From positions 4,712 through 68,711 of the forward strand of contig JADZDP010000177.1 of NCBI GenBank assembly GCA_020850995.1: 64,000 bases of DNA. The letters are read 5' to 3'. Shown here in pieces: positions 32,868 through 39,836 of the stretch. Origin of the DNA: Deltaproteobacteria bacterium (lineage in GTDB: Bacteria > Myxococcota > UBA727 > VGSZ01). The position numbers were made by a program, and so were the translations under genes. The stretch's first letter is position 1, and every line of letters starts with the position of its first letter. Under the pieces are notes generated by a model, which worked only from the letters and a program-made list of their open reading frames with translations, searched no databases and was not told where the DNA came from.

Positions 32868-32897
32868 GGGACACCCTCGGAGGGACGGGGCGGAGTG

Positions 32898-32987
32898 GCG
32901 GAGAGAGAGGGATTCGAACCCTCGAGACGGTTTCCCGCCTACGCGATTTCCAGTCGCGTGCCTTCAGCCACTCGGCCATCTCTCCAC
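32898..32987 (-). tRNA. tRNA-Ser (anticodon GGA)
   Basis: Reverse complement reads GGAGAGATGGCCGAGTGGCTGAAGGCACGCGACTGGAAATCGCG...long variable arm...GGGTTCGAATCCCTCTCTCTCCGCCA, a class II cloverleaf. Coordinates approximate to 1 nt. Confidence 0.85.
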
Positions 32988-33102: not shown

Positions 33103-33192
33103 GGACAGCTGGCCGAGTGGCTGAAGGCACCTGACTCGAAATCAGGAGTACCCGCAAGGGTATCGGGGGTTCGAATCCCTCGCTGTCCGCCA
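33103..33192 (+). tRNA. tRNA-Ser (anticodon CGA)
   Basis: GGACAGCTGGCCGAGTGGCTGAAGGCACCTGACTCGAAATCAGG...GGGGGTTCGAATCCCTCGCTGTCCGCCA, divergent from the other tRNA-Ser. Coordinates approximate to 1 nt. Confidence 0.85.
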
Positions 33193-33263: not shown

Positions 33264-33338
33264 TCTGACTGGGTATCTGACAGGGAGCGGCTCGTGACGA
33301 TGACGTCTTGCCGCCGAGACAGGGTGTTTGACAGGGAA
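33264..33338. repeat. Direct-repeat motif copies (TCTGACTGGG, TCTGACAGGGAG, TTTGACAGGGAA) upstream of the NTase operon
   Basis: 33271-33286 gggtatctgacaggga; 33322-33338 gggtgtttgacagggaa. The same two motifs recur fused at 37712-37737. Confidence 0.5.
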
Positions 33339-33393: not shown

Positions 33394-33855
33394 ATGACGC
33401 TCGACAACGCAACCCTTCGCGACGCGTTGACCGCCCTCGGTGAGCTCCTCGTCGACCGCGGTGAGACCTACGACATCGTCGTCATCGGAGGCGGTGCATT
33501 GTTGCTCGGCGGCCACATCGAGCGGCCGACGAAGGATCTCGACGTCCTCGCGCGCATCGAGGGTGATCGCTGGCTCAGCGCGCAGCCGCTGCCCGATGCG
33601 CTGCGCGCCGCCGTCGCCGATGTCGGCGACGCGTTCGGGCTCGCGCGTGACTGGCTCAACTGCGGGCCGACGTCCCTGCTCGCGGGCGGGCTCCCCGACG
33701 GCTTCCCGGAACGGTTGAGCATCGAGCGTTTCGACGCGCTGACGCTCCTCACATCGGCGCGGTGGTGCCGCACGCACGATGCCTCCGAGGGCTTTCGCGG
33801 GCGGCAGCTTCTGCCGGTGCTGCAAGAGCTCGGTGTCGAGGTCGCCGATGTCTAG
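33394..33855 (+). CDS. Nucleotidyltransferase-fold (pol-beta superfamily) small protein
   Basis: hG[GS]-x13-DhD pattern (VVIGGGALLLGGHIERPTKDLDVLARI). Start taken as ATG 33394; the TTG start of the table ORF (33328) lies inside the repeat motif. Translationally coupled to the next gene. Confidence 0.5.
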   Translation: MTLDNATLRDALTALGELLVDRGETYDIVVIGGGALLLGGHIERPTKDLDVLARIEGDRWLSAQPLPDALRAAVADVGDAFGLARDWLNCGPTSLLAGGLPDGFPERLSIERFDALTLLTSARWCRTHDASEGFRGRQLLPVLQELGVEVADV

Positions 33856-34786
33856 CGCCGTCCAGAAGCAGGCCGCGGATCTCGCTTGGAGCCTCTGGAC
33901 GGAGCTCGGCATCGCCGGCGTCGTGCGGGAGCATGCCCACGTGGCAATCGATCCCGAGCCGCTCTTCGTCGCCACGCCGCTCCTTGCAGCGCACGACGCG
34001 CGCCTGCTCGAACAGGTGTCACGTTGGAGCGTGCTCTTCGGCGACTGGCTCGCGATGAGCCGAGTGCAGGCGCTGTGCAAGGCGGCGGAACCCACCGTGC
34101 ATGACGCGTTCGTGTCCTTCGCCGCGTCGATCCCCGGTGGGGGGCGGTGGACGTGTGAGGCCACGAAGATGTCGAAGCAGAAGAACCCGCCGCAGCTGAC
34201 GTCGATGGAGCTGCCGCTCTTGCGACCGGCGCTGGTCCGGCTGCGCCTGCGCGCGATATGCGGCGTCGGTGCACGCGCCGACGTCGTCGCAGAGCTCATC
34301 GGGCACGCGCGCGTATGGTTGCGTGCGTCCGACTTCGAGCATCTCGGCTACACGAAGAGAAACGTCGCTCGCTTGCTGTCCGAGCTCTGCGACGCCGGGT
34401 TTCTGCGGTCGCTGAAGGAGAAGAACGCGATCGCCTATCGCCTCGCCGACGGCGGGCGGTGGTCTGACCTCGTCGGCGCCACGGCCGTCACGTGGCCGGC
34501 ATGGCCCGCAATCTTCGACTTCGCCCGGTTGGCGCTGCGGCTCGATGGGGAACGTGCGAAGAGCGAAGGCGTGCGCCGGGTCGCGGCGGCCCAGACAGCG
34601 CACGCGCTCGAGCCGCTTTGCGATCGCTTGGACCTCGCGCAACCGCCGACCGCGACGGCGAATCCCCAGGCGTGGGCCGCAACGACCGCGTTCGTGGAGC
34701 GCGAGGTGGCAGCCTTCGCGGGCGCGACGTCGCCGTCGATGTCGCGTGCCGGCGGAGCTCGCGGCCGCGTCAGTGCCGCGCGTTGA
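33848..34786 (+). CDS. Hypothetical protein with predicted winged-helix segment, partner of the NTase-fold gene
   Basis: ATG 33848 overlaps the NTase stop. TKRNVARLLSELCDAGFLRSLKEKNAIAYRLAD resembles a wHTH. One Rx5H (RASDFEH) occurrence is noted but not diagnostic. Confidence 0.45.
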   Translation: MSSAVQKQAADLAWSLWTELGIAGVVREHAHVAIDPEPLFVATPLLAAHDARLLEQVSRWSVLFGDWLAMSRVQALCKAAEPTVHDAFVSFAASIPGGGRWTCEATKMSKQKNPPQLTSMELPLLRPALVRLRLRAICGVGARADVVAELIGHARVWLRASDFEHLGYTKRNVARLLSELCDAGFLRSLKEKNAIAYRLADGGRWSDLVGATAVTWPAWPAIFDFARLALRLDGERAKSEGVRRVAAAQTAHALEPLCDRLDLAQPPTATANPQAWAATTAFVEREVAAFAGATSPSMSRAGGARGRVSAAR

Positions 34787-34831: not shown

Positions 34832-35935
34832 TCAGCGTCCACATACCGGGCACGCAAGCCGCCCTTGCGCCGATGGCGCGCATCGTTCGCAAAGCAGGTG
34901 GATCTTGTCGTCGCATACCGCGGGGCGAGCGGCAGGGAGCAGGCAGCCGTCGCACGCAGGCACGTCGAGCGTGCGCGCGGCCGAGGGGAGGTGCAGGCTC
35001 AGCACGCGCTCCTCCTTCCGTCGACGCACGCGCACGTCGACGACGATCGTGGGCACTTCGACGACGGCGGCGAAGACGATCGTCGCGCGCGCACGCAACG
35101 TGTAGCGGGCGCGCAACTCCGCCAACTTCGCCGCGCGCTCATTCTCGAGATGTTCGACGCGGGCTTTGACCGCCGCCGGATCACGTTGCTTGCGACCGGT
35201 ACGCGTTTCGTAGATGAGCTCGTGAAAGTACGCATCGACGCGCTCGTGGTCGCGCCGGTGCCGGCGGGCGACGTTGTCCTGATGTGCGCCGGCGAGCGCG
35301 GCCAGCCGGGCGCGCAGCCGGGGCGGGAGGACCTCCGCGCGCACCGCAGGGAGGGCGCGGTGCGCTCCACGAAGCGCGCTCGTGGTGTCGAGCGCGAGCG
35401 CCGCGACCAGGGCCGAGTCCGGCGCGGCGCCGTCCGATGCGCACAACGCCAGCACCTCGAACGCCTCGTCGCGGTCGTCCGCCTCGACGACGAGGCGCGT
35501 GCCGACGAACGCGTACGCCTCGTTGCGAGCGCGTACCGCGCCGACGTCGACAACCGCGTTGCGCAGCGCGAAGCGGGCCGCGAGCGCCTCGGCCTGGCTC
35601 GCGCGCGGTGCCGCCAGCTCTGCGTCGGCGACGACGTACCCACGCAGCGACGAGCGCTCATCGACCAACCGATCGAGGAGCCCGGTCCCGAGCCCGCACG
35701 CAACGGCCCCTGTCCGTGCGGCTGACGCGACCTGCACCTCCTCCTGGAGCGCGAGCCGGGTGGCCAACGCCGACGGGAGGATCGCGAGGGCCTCCTCCTC
35801 GCCGTCGGCTGCGTTGGCGACCTCGACGAGCGCGCCGTCGCGCGCGAGGGCGTCCGCGCAGAAGCGCACGGGGCTCGGCAGTGTCGCCGGCAGTGTCGCC
35901 GGCAGTGTCGTCGGCAGCGCGGGCAGCGAGGTCAT
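34832..35935 (-). CDS. Hypothetical protein with C-terminal Cys-rich Zn-ribbon-like tail, co-operonic with SNF2 helicase
   Basis: C-terminus VPACDGCLLPAARPAVCDDKIHLLCERCAPSAQGRLACPVCGR (8 Cys + 1 His). The 4-nt overlap (35932-35935) with the upstream helicase gene implies coupling. Confidence 0.5.
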   Translation of the reverse strand: MTSLPALPTTLPATLPATLPSPVRFCADALARDGALVEVANAADGEEEALAILPSALATRLALQEEVQVASAARTGAVACGLGTGLLDRLVDERSSLRGYVVADAELAAPRASQAEALAARFALRNAVVDVGAVRARNEAYAFVGTRLVVEADDRDEAFEVLALCASDGAAPDSALVAALALDTTSALRGAHRALPAVRAEVLPPRLRARLAALAGAHQDNVARRHRRDHERVDAYFHELIYETRTGRKQRDPAAVKARVEHLENERAAKLAELRARYTLRARATIVFAAVVEVPTIVVDVRVRRRKEERVLSLHLPSAARTLDVPACDGCLLPAARPAVCDDKIHLLCERCAPSAQGRLACPVCGR

Positions 35936-37626
35936 GCGGCGAAGTCCTCGCCGAACACCGCGTCGTCGAGCTTCTTGGAGTTCTCGTACGTTCCGCGCGC
36001 CGCGCCGATCTCCGCCGCGAGCGCGTCGAAGCCACGGTCGATCTCCGCCTCGTCCTTGCTGGCGGCGTAGAGCGCGAGCACGCGCTCCTCGAGGTCGCGG
36101 TCATCGGCGAGGTTGCCGAGCACCATGTCCATCTCGCCGACGACGAGCTCGAACAGATGGAGCCGCCGATCGAGCACGTCGAGCAGCTTCTCCTCCGCCG
36201 ACCCCTTCATCGCGAGGTTGTAGACGTGCACGTCGCGCGTCTGGCCCATGCGGTGGACGCGGCCGATGCGCTGCTCGAGCAGCATCGGGTTCCACGGCAC
36301 GTCGAAGCTGACGACGACGTTGCAGTGCTGCAGGTTGGTCCCCTCGGCGCCGACGTCGGTGGACACGAGGGCGCAGCGCTCCTCGCGGAACCGCTCGACG
36401 GCGAGCGCCTTCTCGTCGGCCGACTGCGCGCCAGAGACCACGACGTGCCGCACGCCAGCGTCGTTGAACGCGCGCTCGATCGCCGCCAGCGTCGCGCGGA
36501 AGCGCGTGAACACCAGCGCGTGCCCGCCGTGCGCCCGCACCAATGCGACCAGCTGCTCGAGCTTCTTCGTCTGCGTCGCGGCCCGTGCCGCCTCGCGGGC
36601 AGCGGCGAAGGCGGGACCGTCGAGCGCGGTCGCGCGGTCAAGCGTGGCGCGCACGGCGTCAGGGCTCGAGCCCGCCTCGAGGAGCAGCGTGGTGCCGAGG
36701 AGCGTTCGCCGCGCGGCCTGCGCGTCGGCGCGCACGAGATCGACGACCCGATCGTAGAGCGCGCGCTCCGCGGCCAGCGGCTCGACGACGGCGGTGGTCA
36801 CGAAGCGCGGCGGCAGCTTCAAGCCGCACGCCGCGCGCGTGTTGCGCACCATGACGTCCCCAAGCAACTGTCGCAGCCGCTCGCGGTTCTTCGGCGAAGT
36901 CGGATCGGACTTGTCGACGAACTGCGCCTTGAACGCCGACGCCGTCGTGAGCTGGCCCGGCCGCAGCAACGTGACGAGCGCGTACAGCTCCTCGAGGCTC
37001 GTCTCGATCGGCGTGGCGGTGAGCAGCAGCAGGAAGCGGCTCTTCAGGCCGTCGACGAGCTTGTAGCCGAGGGTAGACTGCTTCTTGATGTGGTGGGCCT
37101 CGTCGACGACGACGAGATCCCACGAAGCGCTCTGGAGCAGTGGCGCGACTTTGGCGCCGCGCGCCTTGGCGAGCGACGCGAGCACGACACCGTCCCTCGC
37201 GAGGAACGCCGCCGGGTCTTGTTCGAAGGCGTGGTCATCGAGCGTCGCGGCCTGCACTCCGGCCTTCGCGAGGAGCTCGCCCCGCCACTGCGGAACGAGC
37301 GCCGGCGGTGCGATCACGAGGGTGCGGCGCGCCATGCCGCGCAGTTGGTACTCGCGCAGCACGAGGATCGCCTCGACGGTCTTGCCGAGCCCGACCTCGT
37401 CGGCGAGGAGCGCACGGCCGCGGAGCACGCGGAGCACGCGCCGGACGGTGTCGTGCTGGTAGGTGTGCGCGTCGACGCCGGCGAGCGACTGTGGCGAGAG
37501 CAGGTCGGTGAACGTCGCGGCCGACGCGAGGGTGTGCGCGCGCACCGCGAGCGAGAGGTCGACGAGCGTCATGGGCGCGCGCAGCAGCGCTGTGACGTCG
37601 CCCGTCGTCACGTCGGCGATCTCCAT
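35932..37626 (-). CDS. Compact SNF2-family (HepA/RapA-like) helicase/ATPase
   Basis: Motif I DEVGLGKT; motif II DLVVVDEAHHIK; motif III LLLTATP; C-terminal helicase motifs ...TDVGAEGTNLQ... and RIGRVHRMGQ; 564 aa. Confidence 0.8.
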   Translation of the reverse strand: MEIADVTTGDVTALLRAPMTLVDLSLAVRAHTLASAATFTDLLSPQSLAGVDAHTYQHDTVRRVLRVLRGRALLADEVGLGKTVEAILVLREYQLRGMARRTLVIAPPALVPQWRGELLAKAGVQAATLDDHAFEQDPAAFLARDGVVLASLAKARGAKVAPLLQSASWDLVVVDEAHHIKKQSTLGYKLVDGLKSRFLLLLTATPIETSLEELYALVTLLRPGQLTTASAFKAQFVDKSDPTSPKNRERLRQLLGDVMVRNTRAACGLKLPPRFVTTAVVEPLAAERALYDRVVDLVRADAQAARRTLLGTTLLLEAGSSPDAVRATLDRATALDGPAFAAAREAARAATQTKKLEQLVALVRAHGGHALVFTRFRATLAAIERAFNDAGVRHVVVSGAQSADEKALAVERFREERCALVSTDVGAEGTNLQHCNVVVSFDVPWNPMLLEQRIGRVHRMGQTRDVHVYNLAMKGSAEEKLLDVLDRRLHLFELVVGEMDMVLGNLADDRDLEERVLALYAASKDEAEIDRGFDALAAEIGAARGTYENSKKLDDAVFGEDFAA

Positions 37627-37711
37627 GGGCGGCGGCTCGACGCCAGCACCTCATCGCGAACGCGCGTCGCCATCGCCGCCGAGTAGCTGAAACGGCGGGC
37701 CGTTGCGATCC

Positions 37712-37737
37712 GGTTTGACAGGGAATCTGACAGGGTA
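37712..37737. repeat. Second copy of the TTTGACAGGGAA + TCTGACAGGG motif pair (same orientation), ~85 nt upstream of the helicase start
   Basis: ggtttgacagggaatctgacagggta; compare 33264-33338. Confidence 0.5.
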
Positions 37738-38009
37738 CGCCGTGCGAACGGTGCCCCTCGGTGCGCACACCGCCGCTCGCGCCGGCGGAGCCGGACGCGG
37801 CCGGCGCCGGGGCGTCGTACGTCTCGAACGTGCGCGTCCTGCAACGCGACGATGGACCAGCCCAGTAGCTCGGCTTCTCAGCTCGATTCACCCACCTATG
37901 GCCCTGGTGGCCGTGGCCGGTCTACGTTCACGACGCGGCGAGCCCCGCGGGGCGCCGATTCGCGCGCCGCTCGTCCAGAGAGCACACGCCCCGCGCAGAG
38001 GACCGGCTC

Positions 38010-39191
38010 ATGAAGAAGGCCACAGCCAGACTACGAGCGACCCGGTCGATCACGCTCTCTATCGCCAACTTCGCCCAGATCCGCAGTGTCGACCTCGCGC
38101 TTGGCGACCTGACCGTCCTTGTGGGTCCGCAAGGCGCAGGCAAGAGCCTCGCTCTACAGTGGCTCAAGGCGGGGATGGACGGGAAGCAGGTCATCGATGC
38201 GCTGCGCGCCGCCGGTCACCCCACCGAAAGATCCGACGTCGTCGTTGACCTCATCTTCGGCACCGGCATGGCACCGGCATGGCGGGCCGACTCGACCGTC
38301 ACTCTCGACGGAAAGACCATCACTCCGAAGGTACTGAGTCGTGTTGGAAACGGAGAGGAGCGCCTCTTCTTCATTCCTGCGCACCGCTCGATGCTGATTA
38401 GCGACGGCTGGGCGGCGCCCTTCCAAAAGCTCGGCTCCGACACCCCGGCAGTGGCGCGCCTCTTTAGCCAGAACCTCTTTGATCGCTTCAGCGGCAAGGA
38501 CGCGGGCACGCTCTTCCCCGTGGAGAAGCGCCTCAAGGCGGAGATCCGAAAACAGATCGACGACGCTGTCTTTCACGGTGGCAAGGTCGGAATCGCAGAG
38601 GATGCTCAGCATGCCCGTCGCCTCCGCCTCGCGCACGGGGACATGCACCTGCCGTTCATGACGTGGACTGCGGGCCAGCGCGAATTCACCCCACTCCTCC
38701 TCGCCCTCTATCACCTCCTCCCTTCGACCAAGCTGCGCAAGCGCAAAGGGACGGACTGGGTCGTTCTCGAGGAGCCGGAGATGGGACTTCACCCGCAAGC
38801 GATCACAGCTGTGATGCTGCTCGTCCTCGATCTCCTCTGGCGCGGCTACCGGGTCGTGATGTCGACTCACTCCCCGCACGTGCTGACCATGCTGTGGATG
38901 ATGCAGCGCCTCAAGGAGAACGCCGCTCGGTGGCAGCTCGTCTGCGAGGCCTTTGACGTGAAGGTACCGGCGCAGATGCGCAAGGTCGCGGAGGCCGCGC
39001 TCCAAAAAGACTACCGCGCCCACTTTCTGACATTCGGCAACGATGGGCATGTGACGTCGACGGAGATCACCGGTCTCGACCCATCTTCGGAGAACGAGGG
39101 CGAGGCCGAATGGGGCGGTCTCACGGGCTACTCGTCGCGTTTCGGTGACGTCGTGCGCAAGGCAGTGAACGAGGCCGAGAGTGGGCGCTAG
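38010..39191 (+). CDS. ABC-type (AAA_21/OLD-like) ATPase
   Basis: Walker A GPQGAGKS; Walker B/D-loop WVVLEEPEMGLHPQ; H-loop STHSPHVL; 393 aa. Codon usage and GC look visibly lower than the surrounding DNA. Confidence 0.7.
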   Translation: MKKATARLRATRSITLSIANFAQIRSVDLALGDLTVLVGPQGAGKSLALQWLKAGMDGKQVIDALRAAGHPTERSDVVVDLIFGTGMAPAWRADSTVTLDGKTITPKVLSRVGNGEERLFFIPAHRSMLISDGWAAPFQKLGSDTPAVARLFSQNLFDRFSGKDAGTLFPVEKRLKAEIRKQIDDAVFHGGKVGIAEDAQHARRLRLAHGDMHLPFMTWTAGQREFTPLLLALYHLLPSTKLRKRKGTDWVVLEEPEMGLHPQAITAVMLLVLDLLWRGYRVVMSTHSPHVLTMLWMMQRLKENAARWQLVCEAFDVKVPAQMRKVAEAALQKDYRAHFLTFGNDGHVTSTEITGLDPSSENEGEAEWGGLTGYSSRFGDVVRKAVNEAESGR

Positions 39192-39660
39192 CAAGGGCAG
39201 GAAGGCGACGCCCGTAAGGGCCGCGCTGGTCGACAACAGCCACCTGCTCAACCTCATTCAGGAAGGCCTCGGCGCGCTCAAGAGCTCGGACAAGGCCCTC
39301 ATCGCTGCCGAGCTCAAGTCCGCCTTCCTCGACAGCATCGACATCGACACAGGGCTCAGGGCGGGACACGATCAGGAGAATCGCTGGGACTACTTGCTAG
39401 GTCACGGGGCGAGAGAGGTTGTCGTTGCGCTCGAGACGCACGCAGCTCGCCAAGGAGAGATTCGCACGATCATCAGGAAGCGCCGCGCGGCGCTTGAACA
39501 GCTCAGGCCCCACCTGCGCGCCGGCTCCAAGATCACCGCGTGGTTCTGGGTTGCAACCGGCTCCGTCCGCTTTGCCGACACAGAGAAGGCCCCCCGCATA
39601 CTCGATCAGAATGGGATCACGTTCGTCGATAGGTGCCTCAAGGGGGCGCACCTCCGATGA
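39181..39660 (+). CDS. Small hypothetical protein (159 aa) coupled to the ABC ATPase; possible effector
   Basis: Overlaps the ATPase 3' end by 11 nt. No motif recognised with confidence (acidic-residue cluster ...VVVALETH...). Confidence 0.4.
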   Translation: MGASKGRKATPVRAALVDNSHLLNLIQEGLGALKSSDKALIAAELKSAFLDSIDIDTGLRAGHDQENRWDYLLGHGAREVVVALETHAARQGEIRTIIRKRRAALEQLRPHLRAGSKITAWFWVATGSVRFADTEKAPRILDQNGITFVDRCLKGAHLR

Positions 39661-39836
39661 GCGCCTCACCGCGGAGATCCGTTGCAGCCGTGGTCGACAC
39701 CTGTGGTCCTCGCCACAATCCTTGCGTCGCGTCCTTGCCACGCACCACGGACCACGCAGCCGCGGTGCTCCATGGGCTCCTGGCATGTCCCTGTGCCGGG
39801 CTCGATCACTGCGGTCGACCTTCGCAGTAGCGCCCG

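Follow-up and report, generated by a model that had tools for sequence, protein, structure and literature searches.

A two-gene PDC-M56 candidate defense locus pairing an ABC-type ATPase with a small protein of predicted PD-(D/E)xK-type nuclease fold

ABC ATPase-based defense systems and the PDC-M56 family

The ATPase-plus-nuclease architecture is already known, and immunity that combines an ABC ATPase with an effector is represented by Septu, PARIS, Gabija, Lamassu and HEC-01 to HEC-04. In HEC-02, for which phage defense was shown experimentally, an ABC ATPase is combined with a PD-(D/E)xK NERD partner (Payne et al., 2024, bioRxiv 10.1101/2024.01.29.577857). The same study predicted 145 'PDC' systems from gene families with members that lie inside BREX, DISARM or type I RM systems, and by its authors' own description these are candidate systems only (Payne et al., 2024). 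One of them, PDC-M56, is listed in the supplementary table as cassette CAS_00181 (FAM_00005>>FAM_02395) with 47 RefSeq instances, and its ATPase family FAM_00005 is common to PDC-M56, HEC-01, PDC-M07 and PDC-M55 (Payne et al., 2024). In the literature searched, the name 'PDC-M56' appeared in no main text and only in that supplementary table, and no published description of component B was found.

The locus described here lies in a 64,000-nucleotide stretch of DNA from a Deltaproteobacteria bacterium, and this whole analyzed stretch is referred to below as the window. Its two genes, A and B, are a member of PDC-M56 by profile, order and adjacency. Protein A matches the PDC-M56A HMM of PADLOC-DB with E = 1.8e-117 and 390.5 bits (residues 16-388 on profile positions 4-380 of 382), while the runner-up PADLOC family, Old, reaches E = 1.1e-16; this and every other ATPase match of A (AriA, HEC-01A, NsnB, GajA and further families) is confined to part of the protein and weaker by about 100 orders of magnitude. 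Protein B matches PDC-M56B with E = 3.4e-21 (residues 13-150 on profile positions 9-146 of 151), its sole PADLOC match, and the family layout is kept, with A followed by the adjacent B and both on the + strand. The window pair thus has the gene order, strand, adjacency and full-length matches of the family, and the one difference detected is an overlap of 11 nt between the genes versus 4 nt in most family members. The initial annotation of this DNA had presented the pair as a defense candidate, which the full-length matches to both profiles bear out at the level of candidate status only. The architecture is not an unrecognized one, because PDC-M56 has been present in PADLOC-DB since 2023.

That annotation had also likened the pair to Gabija, PARIS and Septu, with which it shares only the general ATPase-plus-nuclease logic. 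It falls outside PARIS, Septu, Gabija/OLD and HEC-02 because the partner domains that define these systems were tested for and are absent. As in HEC-02, there are two genes encoding an ABC ATPase and a separate partner of predicted PD-(D/E)xK-superfamily fold, but the match of A to HEC-02A is confined to residues 234-303 (E = 8.2e-09), and B, which has no HEC-02B or Pfam NERD match, is a far smaller protein from an orphan sequence family. The pair differs from Septu in that A scores 18.3 bits on NCBIfam PtuA against a cut-off of 500 and B is not an HNH protein whereas PtuB is, and it differs from retron-associated PtuAB in that there is no reverse transcriptase or ncRNA near the window pair, Rfam finding only two tRNAs in 32.8-40 kb. 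With PARIS it has in common an AAA_15/AAA_21-type ATPase and a separate small nuclease (predicted here), yet the AriA profiles match A locally (E = 3.8e-16, residues 170-291), in the C-terminal ATPase core only, and B has no AriB, DUF4435 or Toprim match at E <= 0.1 and a PD-(D/E)xK-like predicted fold. In contrast to Gabija and OLD (class 1/2 nucleases), A is an ATPase only, with 393 residues, no fused TOPRIM domain and purely local GajA and Old matches, and the A/B operon contains no UvrD-like helicase (GajB) partner. By analogy, the pair plausibly works like PARIS, Septu, Gabija/OLD and HEC-02.

The two genes and their pairing

Both open reading frames were found where they had been claimed to lie (Table 1), and together they span 1.65 kb. 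They are real genes and not chance ORFs of GC-rich sequence because there are 2812 database homologs of A and 465 of B; both also have a coding-type GC1/GC2/GC3 pattern. The GC content is ~0.71 in the window and 0.64 at 38-40 kb, and GC3 is 0.80 in A and 0.81 in B versus 0.90-0.97 in most neighbor genes, and therefore their earlier description as low in GC is right in a relative sense, the difference from the background being real though modest. Direct reading of the sequence places a GAGG six nt 5' of the GTG start of B, and the 11-nt overlap of the two genes suggests translational coupling.

Table 1. Features of the PDC-M56 locus and its surroundings (window coordinates).
Feature	Position	Strand	Details
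tRNA-Ser	32896-32985	-	
tRNA-Ser	33103-33192	+	
DUF6036/AbiEii-like nucleotidyltransferase	33394-33855		
312-aa protein	33848-34786		After nucleotidyltransferase gene
367-aa protein	34832-35935	-	Gene overlaps SNF2 helicase gene
SNF2 helicase	35932-37626	-	564 aa; partial DrmD/BrxH-type matches
Divergent intergenic region, SNF2 gene (-)/gene A	37627-38009		383 nt
Direct repeat TGACAGGG-N4-TGACAGGG	37716-37735		Inside intergenic region
Gene A, PDC-M56A	38010-39191	+	ABC-type ATPase, AAA_21/AAA_15 class; 393 aa; ATG start
Walker A/P-loop codons, G39-P-Q-G-A-G-K45-S46	38124-38147	+	G39, Q41, G44, K45, S46 invariant in alignment of A homologs
ABC signature-like codons, W219-T-A-G-Q-R-E-F226	38664-38687	+	W219, A221, G222, Q223, R224, E225 invariant
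OLD-type Walker B/D-loop codons, V251-V-L-E254-E255-P-E-M-G-L-H-P262	38760-38795	+	E254, E255, P256, E257, M258, G259, L260, H261, P262 invariant
H-loop codons, S285-T-H287-S-P289	38862-38876	+	H287, S288 invariant
A/B junction	39171-39191	+	GAGG 39171-39174; B GTG 39181-39183; A TAG 39189-39191; sequence read directly
Gene B, PDC-M56B	39181-39660	+	Predicted PD-(D/E)xK (restriction-endonuclease-like) fold; 159 aa; GTG start
Proposed active-site codons of B	39388-39480	+	D70 39388-39390; E85 39433-39435; H87 39439-39441; K100 39478-39480

Protein A matches Pfam AAA_21 (5.6e-15) and AAA_15 (6.5e-14), the two families that had been put forward for it, and the canonical motifs of the SMC/RecF/OLD clade with which it had been credited, namely Walker A, Walker B/D-loop and H-loop, are conserved in the 44-57 homologs over which motif conservation was judged; its EEPEMxLHP block aligns to the OLD protein 6p74. 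In the predicted structure, the fold comparison figures are 15.4 for Rad50, 15.4 for the SMC head, 15.0 for Septu PtuA (8ee4), 13.8-13.9 for the Retron Eco7/Ec83 ATPases, 12.8 for the best transporter NBD, 12.0 for RecF, 11.8 for Retron Eco8 OLD and 11.6 for GajA, which places the modeled fold nearest to the Rad50/SMC heads and PtuA. The model consists of the ATPase and a C-terminal helical/beta part of ~100 residues, and it has neither a long coiled-coil arm nor a fused nuclease domain. Residues 120-141 (FIPAHRSMLISDGWAAPFQKL), which are invariant among homologs and of low confidence in the model, may form the Q-loop or a partner-binding element. No permease or substrate-binding gene lies within ~5 kb of A, as had been noted at the outset, nor is a membrane partner present in the other PDC-M56 loci. 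The assignment of A as an SMC/Rad50/OLD-clade ABC ATPase without a transporter partner is therefore supported.

The pairing of A with B was examined from relatives of B sought in one genome per species, which gave 63 loci from Myxococcota, Acidobacteriota, Alpha-, Beta- and Gammaproteobacteria, Verrucomicrobiota, Planctomycetota, Cyanobium and other groups, representing at least eight phyla. In each of the 62 loci whose sequence extends far enough upstream of B, the coding sequence of an A homolog stops within a few bases of the B start; in the four loci that lack A, the contig breaks off. The initial annotation would have been refuted had the small ORF not been conserved beside homologous ATPases, and this result does not refute it. 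A distantly related pair from Bacteroidales, with 31% and 26% identity, has the same arrangement. In 43 of 56 homologous loci the start of B and the stop of A share a 4-nt NTGA overlap, the usual mark of translational coupling. The divergences of A and B correlate (Mantel r = 0.59, reached by 0 of 2000 permutations) and therefore both genes travel together; A and B are a strictly co-inherited pair. All-against-all clustering of neighbor ORFs from the 63 loci gave no third conserved gene, only A, B and shadow ORFs, and recurrence of an HNH_2 gene and a giant methyltransferase is limited to about six of the 63, the HNH_2 gene being absent from the window. Two proteins were considered as A-B fusions and not counted: P0129 (548 aa) has a mere N-terminal extension, and P0313 (543 aa) contains both parts, but its residues 268-388 match neither and it fits a frameshifted read-through.

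The pair is widespread in environmental Myxococcota, Acidobacteriota and Proteobacteria. Among the best 120 of the 2812 homologs, A is 74-82% identical, and these include Betaproteobacteria, Burkholderia, Chromobacterium and Corallococcus. For B, a deep profile search recovered at least 938 clusters at 50% identity, and in the best 150 of the 938 nearly all are stand-alone proteins of ~70-200 aa. The 72,556 plasmids and 50,697 phages searched gave no match to B, which was counted against a defense role. Over a 55-locus set, the mean pairwise distance is 0.33 for A versus 0.47 for B, and this greater conservation of the presumed sensor was likewise counted against such a role, as it is unusual for a protein that tracks variable phage proteins.

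The predicted nuclease-like fold of component B

The small ORF had been called unannotatable, which is true for Pfam, NCBIfam and PHROG, where it has no match, and untrue for PADLOC, where it matches PDC-M56B. A set of 65 divergent homologs provided no Pfam-level link either, and profile searches with B against solved structures (PDB chains) returned chance-level matches only. The AF2 model is confident (pLDDT 91.9, pTM 0.87; 44-sequence alignment) and has an alpha-beta-beta-beta-alpha-beta core of the restriction-endonuclease-like type. Its structural neighbors are almost all PD-(D/E)xK nucleases, such as Can2 (7.3, 7.2), Card1 (6.6) and the XisH-like 2okf (6.5), and they also include Upx, LlaBIII, N.BspD6I, AF1548, Cap4, NucS, Cfr10I, NgoMIV, PspGI, a CdiA-CT DNase, Shedu SduA and Bax1. 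Defense effectors among the neighbors are Can2, Card1, Cap4, NucC, Shedu and HamA, and Foldseek agrees weakly (Cdn1, E = 0.026). Can2/Card1 and Cap4 are fused to CARF/SAVED sensors and are activated by cyclic oligonucleotides in type III CRISPR and CBASS, whereas B stands alone as a domain, has an ATPase partner and shares 8-14% sequence identity with them.

Across the same 65 homologs, which are 29-51% identical, E85, H87, K100, W121 and W123 of B are invariant and S52, D56 and R68-W69-D70-Y71 are at least 90% conserved. The model places D70 just before strand 2 (71-75), E85-x-H87 on strand 3 (80-90) and K100 on the next helix (91-111). In PD-(D/E)xK sites the catalytic D is on strand 2 and the (D/E)-x-K on strand 3, and from this placement D70, E85, H87 and K100 appear to occupy the usual D...(D/E)xK site of the fold. 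The motif is not the canonical (D/E)-x-K but E-x-H, with a His where the canonical motif has its Lys and a further, invariant Lys on the next helix, a departure that was also counted against a nuclease-based defense role. We predict that B is a minimal PD-(D/E)xK-type nuclease fold with a putative D / E-x-H / K constellation. Neither B nor its 65 divergent homologs match TOPRIM, DUF4276, DUF4435 or HNH families in Pfam, NCBIfam, PHROG or PADLOC, and of the two suggestions in the initial annotation, a TOPRIM/DUF4276-like partner or some other effector, the modeled resemblance to PD-(D/E)xK nucleases leaves the second.

Genomic context, proposed mechanism and alternative explanations

The pair ends a stretch of ~6.5 kb that begins at two divergent tRNA-Ser genes, and the flanking genes are housekeeping-like (CstA, a VTT/DedA-family protein and a PilB-like ATPase). 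The promoter region presumably lies in the intergenic region between the SNF2 gene and A, where no match to the sigma-70 promoter consensus was found, and a promoter/terminator scan of 37.5-39.95 kb gave nothing beyond the shuffled expectation. The TGACAGGG repeat within this intergenic region was rejected as a general PDC-M56 operator, being absent from all other loci and confined to the window's own lineage. No direct repeat of the tRNA-Ser 3' end was found near 39.7 kb, nor any att-like repeat, and the closest relatives (97-98% identical) share the context of the window and offer no empty site for comparison, and therefore the boundaries of the island are provisional.

Elsewhere the pair occupies varied sites. 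It is found inside a cassette of the order SNF2 / giant N6-MTase-Eco57I / 660-aa / A / B / HNH_2 (L001, L002 and L075), beside an MmeI-type enzyme (L074), as a lone two-gene insert among housekeeping genes (L072, L003/L004) and inside a histidine-biosynthesis cluster (L073). That some copies are embedded in or beside restriction-type genes, and that the island in the window holds other defense-like genes, was counted in favor of a defense role, and that about half of the contexts, in a small sample with Pfam calls, are without neighboring defense genes was counted against it. The patchy, site-variable distribution and the very high identity of A across phyla support horizontal spread. As had been suggested from its GC content, the pair was probably acquired horizontally, here as part of a small island by the tRNA-Ser pair, which fits both its composition and its patchy spread across phyla.

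We propose, with a probability of roughly 0.55, that the locus is a self-contained two-gene member of PDC-M56 that would act as an ATPase-controlled nuclease defense system. The mechanism is modeled on published work on Septu, PARIS, Gabija and Lamassu, with HEC-02 as a direct precedent. A and B would be co-translated from a single coupled transcript, and the ABC ATPase A would form ATP-dependent head-to-head oligomers, with ATP-sandwiched heads, that bind and restrain the small nuclease B. An infection cue, possibly the ends or structures of foreign DNA, nucleotide depletion or a protein of the phage, would shift the nucleotide or conformational state of A, and B would then be released or activated to cut nucleic acid by means of D70 / E85-x-H87 / K100, such that the phage DNA is destroyed or the cell is killed or arrested (abortive infection). 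We infer from these analogies the physical interaction of A with B, the nuclease activity and substrate of B, the trigger and the anti-phage function. Given how strongly A is conserved, DNA ends, DNA structures, nucleotide levels or some similarly generic cue is favored over a variable phage protein. A bolder proposal, which we make tentatively and with the odds well against it, is that PDC-M56 is truly an anti-phage system and works by a distinct mechanism, in which an unusually conserved, arm-less, Rad50/PtuA-like ATPase would sense a conserved cue of infection that is not a protein, for instance DNA ends or nucleotide state, and license a PD-(D/E)xK variant of ~160 residues with a D / E-x-H / K site. 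If so, B would be among the smallest known stand-alone immune effectors and would represent a new sequence family of restriction-fold nucleases.

Other explanations assign different roles to one or both proteins. B could have a degenerate endonuclease-like fold and serve as a non-catalytic adaptor or as a sensor that binds nucleic acid, in which case A itself would act, as a DNA clamp or by ATP depletion, or would signal to an effector encoded elsewhere. We regard this as unlikely, since acidic, His and Lys residues that stay invariant in such divergent homologs, and at canonical catalytic positions, are atypical of a decayed site, and since HNH_2 recurs in so few of the loci and no other effector is conserved. 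We give a similarly low likelihood to a selfish, toxin-antitoxin-like addiction module with B as toxin and A as its restraint, which would stabilize islands or mediate competition between mobile elements and have no dedicated anti-phage role. The cassette is indeed small, tightly coupled and horizontally mobile, is found at many unrelated sites including the his cluster, and has a B that is never found without A where this can be judged, and the Pfam label of AAA_21 is 'putative AbiEii toxin, Type IV TA system'; however, B has no counterpart in the plasmid and phage collections, and embedding in RM/BREX-like cassettes points to defense. The line between toxin-antitoxin and abortive infection systems is blurred, and therefore this alternative is partly semantic.

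A minimal DNA repair or recombination complex of a housekeeping type, in which a Rad50/SbcC/RecF-like ATPase would have its own nuclease, is a distinctly poorer prospect. All scores of A against Rad50/SbcC, RecF and RecN are far under the curated cut-offs (RecN 18.7 versus 407.85 bits), the model lacks the coiled-coil insertion of the repair ATPases Rad50, SbcC and RecN, the genes are patchy across phyla, at variable genomic sites and atypical in GC3, and they match a defense-candidate HMM. The chance that A is instead the ATP-binding subunit of an ABC/ECF transporter is close to nil. This reading draws on the name 'EcfA2' that some JGI records give to A homologs and on weak matches to transporter NBD profiles that are limited to the surroundings of Walker A and Walker B, but A scores 15.1 bits on ABC_tran against a cut-off of 25 and well under the cut-offs of the NCBIfam transporter models, and as there is no permease nearby, the JGI label is a mis-annotation.

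The ATPase-controlled nuclease model leaves current thinking unchanged, because the general architecture is well known and the family is already catalogued in PADLOC. What is new is the fold-level assignment of component B as a predicted minimal PD-(D/E)xK-type nuclease, the quantitative evidence of an obligate, translationally coupled pairing of A with B, and the finding that, of the two partners, the ATPase has diverged less. Should PDC-M56 function in the proposed way, it would be a further branch of ABC ATPase-plus-effector immunity, and an orphan protein family with the many clusters recovered for B would gain an annotation. The pair is easy to test, being compact and widespread and having clear mutational targets (K45 and E255 in A; D70, E85, H87 and K100 in B). 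Why the presumed sensor A is so highly conserved is a small puzzle, and it could hint at what such ATPases detect.

Organization of the island around PDC-M56

The stretch of lower-GC3 genes that includes PDC-M56A and PDC-M56B, the ATPase and partner of this candidate two-gene defence system, begins at a pair of tRNA-Ser genes in divergent orientation, which are separated by 117 nt and show 78% mutual complementarity. A search downstream for an att-like repeat of either tRNA-Ser gene found none. The tRNA-Ser gene is directly followed by two overlapping genes, encoding a nucleotidyltransferase and a 312-aa protein, and these may represent an AbiE-like toxin-antitoxin pair. The island also contains an octamer, TGACAGGG, with just four exact occurrences in the 64-kb window, every one of them within a tandem pair of 12-nt spacing (TGACnGGG-N4-TGACAGGG). 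Such pairs are confined to the window's own lineage (L068-L071), with none in the other PDC-M56 loci, and they may serve as a common operator linking the modules of the island.

Coordinates of the features in the window and, where a locus handle (L) is given, of related loci in other genomes
Feature	Location	Strand	Remarks
tRNA-Ser, one of two	32896-32985	-	anticodons of the two: GGA and CGA
tRNA-Ser, one of two	33103-33192	+	
TGACAGGG tandem pair	33266-33285		between tRNA-Ser(cga) and first island gene
TGACAGGG tandem pair	33317-33336		between tRNA-Ser(cga) and first island gene
DUF6036/AbiEii-like nucleotidyltransferase, 153 aa	33394-33855	+	Pfam 1.5e-06 and 3e-04
312-aa protein	33848-34786	+	sole signal a faint HTH
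SNF2 helicase (564 aa) and overlapping 367-aa protein	34832-37626	-	
CGGCAGTGTCGC copies	35876-35917		
TGACAGGG tandem pair	37716-37735		SNF2/ATPase divergent intergenic region
FIPAHRSMLISDGWAAPFQKL codons	38367-38432		PDC-M56A residues 120-141
AGCGCCTCAnnGCGGAGATCCG, first copy	38527-38548		inside PDC-M56A
AGCGCCTCAnnGCGGAGATCCG, second copy	39660-39681		begins at final base of PDC-M56B stop codon
SNF2/~353-aa module	L076 4731-8062		
SNF2/~353-aa module	L077 5208-8062		
Larger cassette with PDC-M56	L001 343-9288		
Larger cassette with PDC-M56	L002		
Larger cassette with PDC-M56	L075 1-8387		
PDC-M56 with his genes	L073 3702-14534		betaproteobacterial MAG

PDC-M56 genes and their contexts in other genomes

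Within the ATPase, nearly all residues of the stretch FIPAHRSMLISDGWAAPFQKL are invariant among homologs, and despite this near-invariance residues 126-140 have pLDDT values below 50 in the AF2 model. The stretch could correspond to a Q-loop or to an interface ordering only once a partner or nucleic acid is bound. The gene also holds one copy of a 22-nt direct repeat, AGCGCCTCAnnGCGGAGATCCG, which matches its second copy at 20 of 22 positions and may well be a chance match.

A larger PDC-M56-containing cassette recurs in several unrelated MAGs, in the order SNF2 helicase (930 aa), N6_Mtase/Eco57I protein (1486-1496 aa), a 661-669-aa protein without a domain, PDC-M56A, PDC-M56B and an HNH_2 protein (~255 aa). 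Clustering suggests that parts of this cassette are present in loci L005, L013, L029 and L038 too; a BREX-like or type IIG-like system is the presumed host. At L073, PDC-M56 is accompanied by an acyltransferase and a GDSL lipase and is flanked by hisG/hisD on one side and hisC/hisB/hisH on the other, and it is therefore an insertion within the histidine-biosynthesis cluster.

The adjacent SNF2 module

The SNF2 helicase and the 367-aa protein form a separate conserved two-gene module. Other genomes encode a ~353-aa homolog of the 367-aa protein immediately downstream of an SNF2 protein (594-757 aa); PDC-M56 is not found near the module in these genomes, and in L077 the module is surrounded by TA, IS66 and TIR genes. 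The 367-aa protein, which lacks any Pfam domain, weakly resembles the C-terminal end of DrmD and, in its own C-terminal part, gives a weak match to a RING-type zinc finger. The 5' end of its gene, which is on the opposite strand, carries an 18-nt unit in three overlapping copies with a spacing of 12 nt (period 12, CGGCAGTGTCGC); these code for a repeated LPAT motif near the N-terminus. The module resembles a DrmD-like protein that has been split, and it may represent a so far unrecognised defence candidate.
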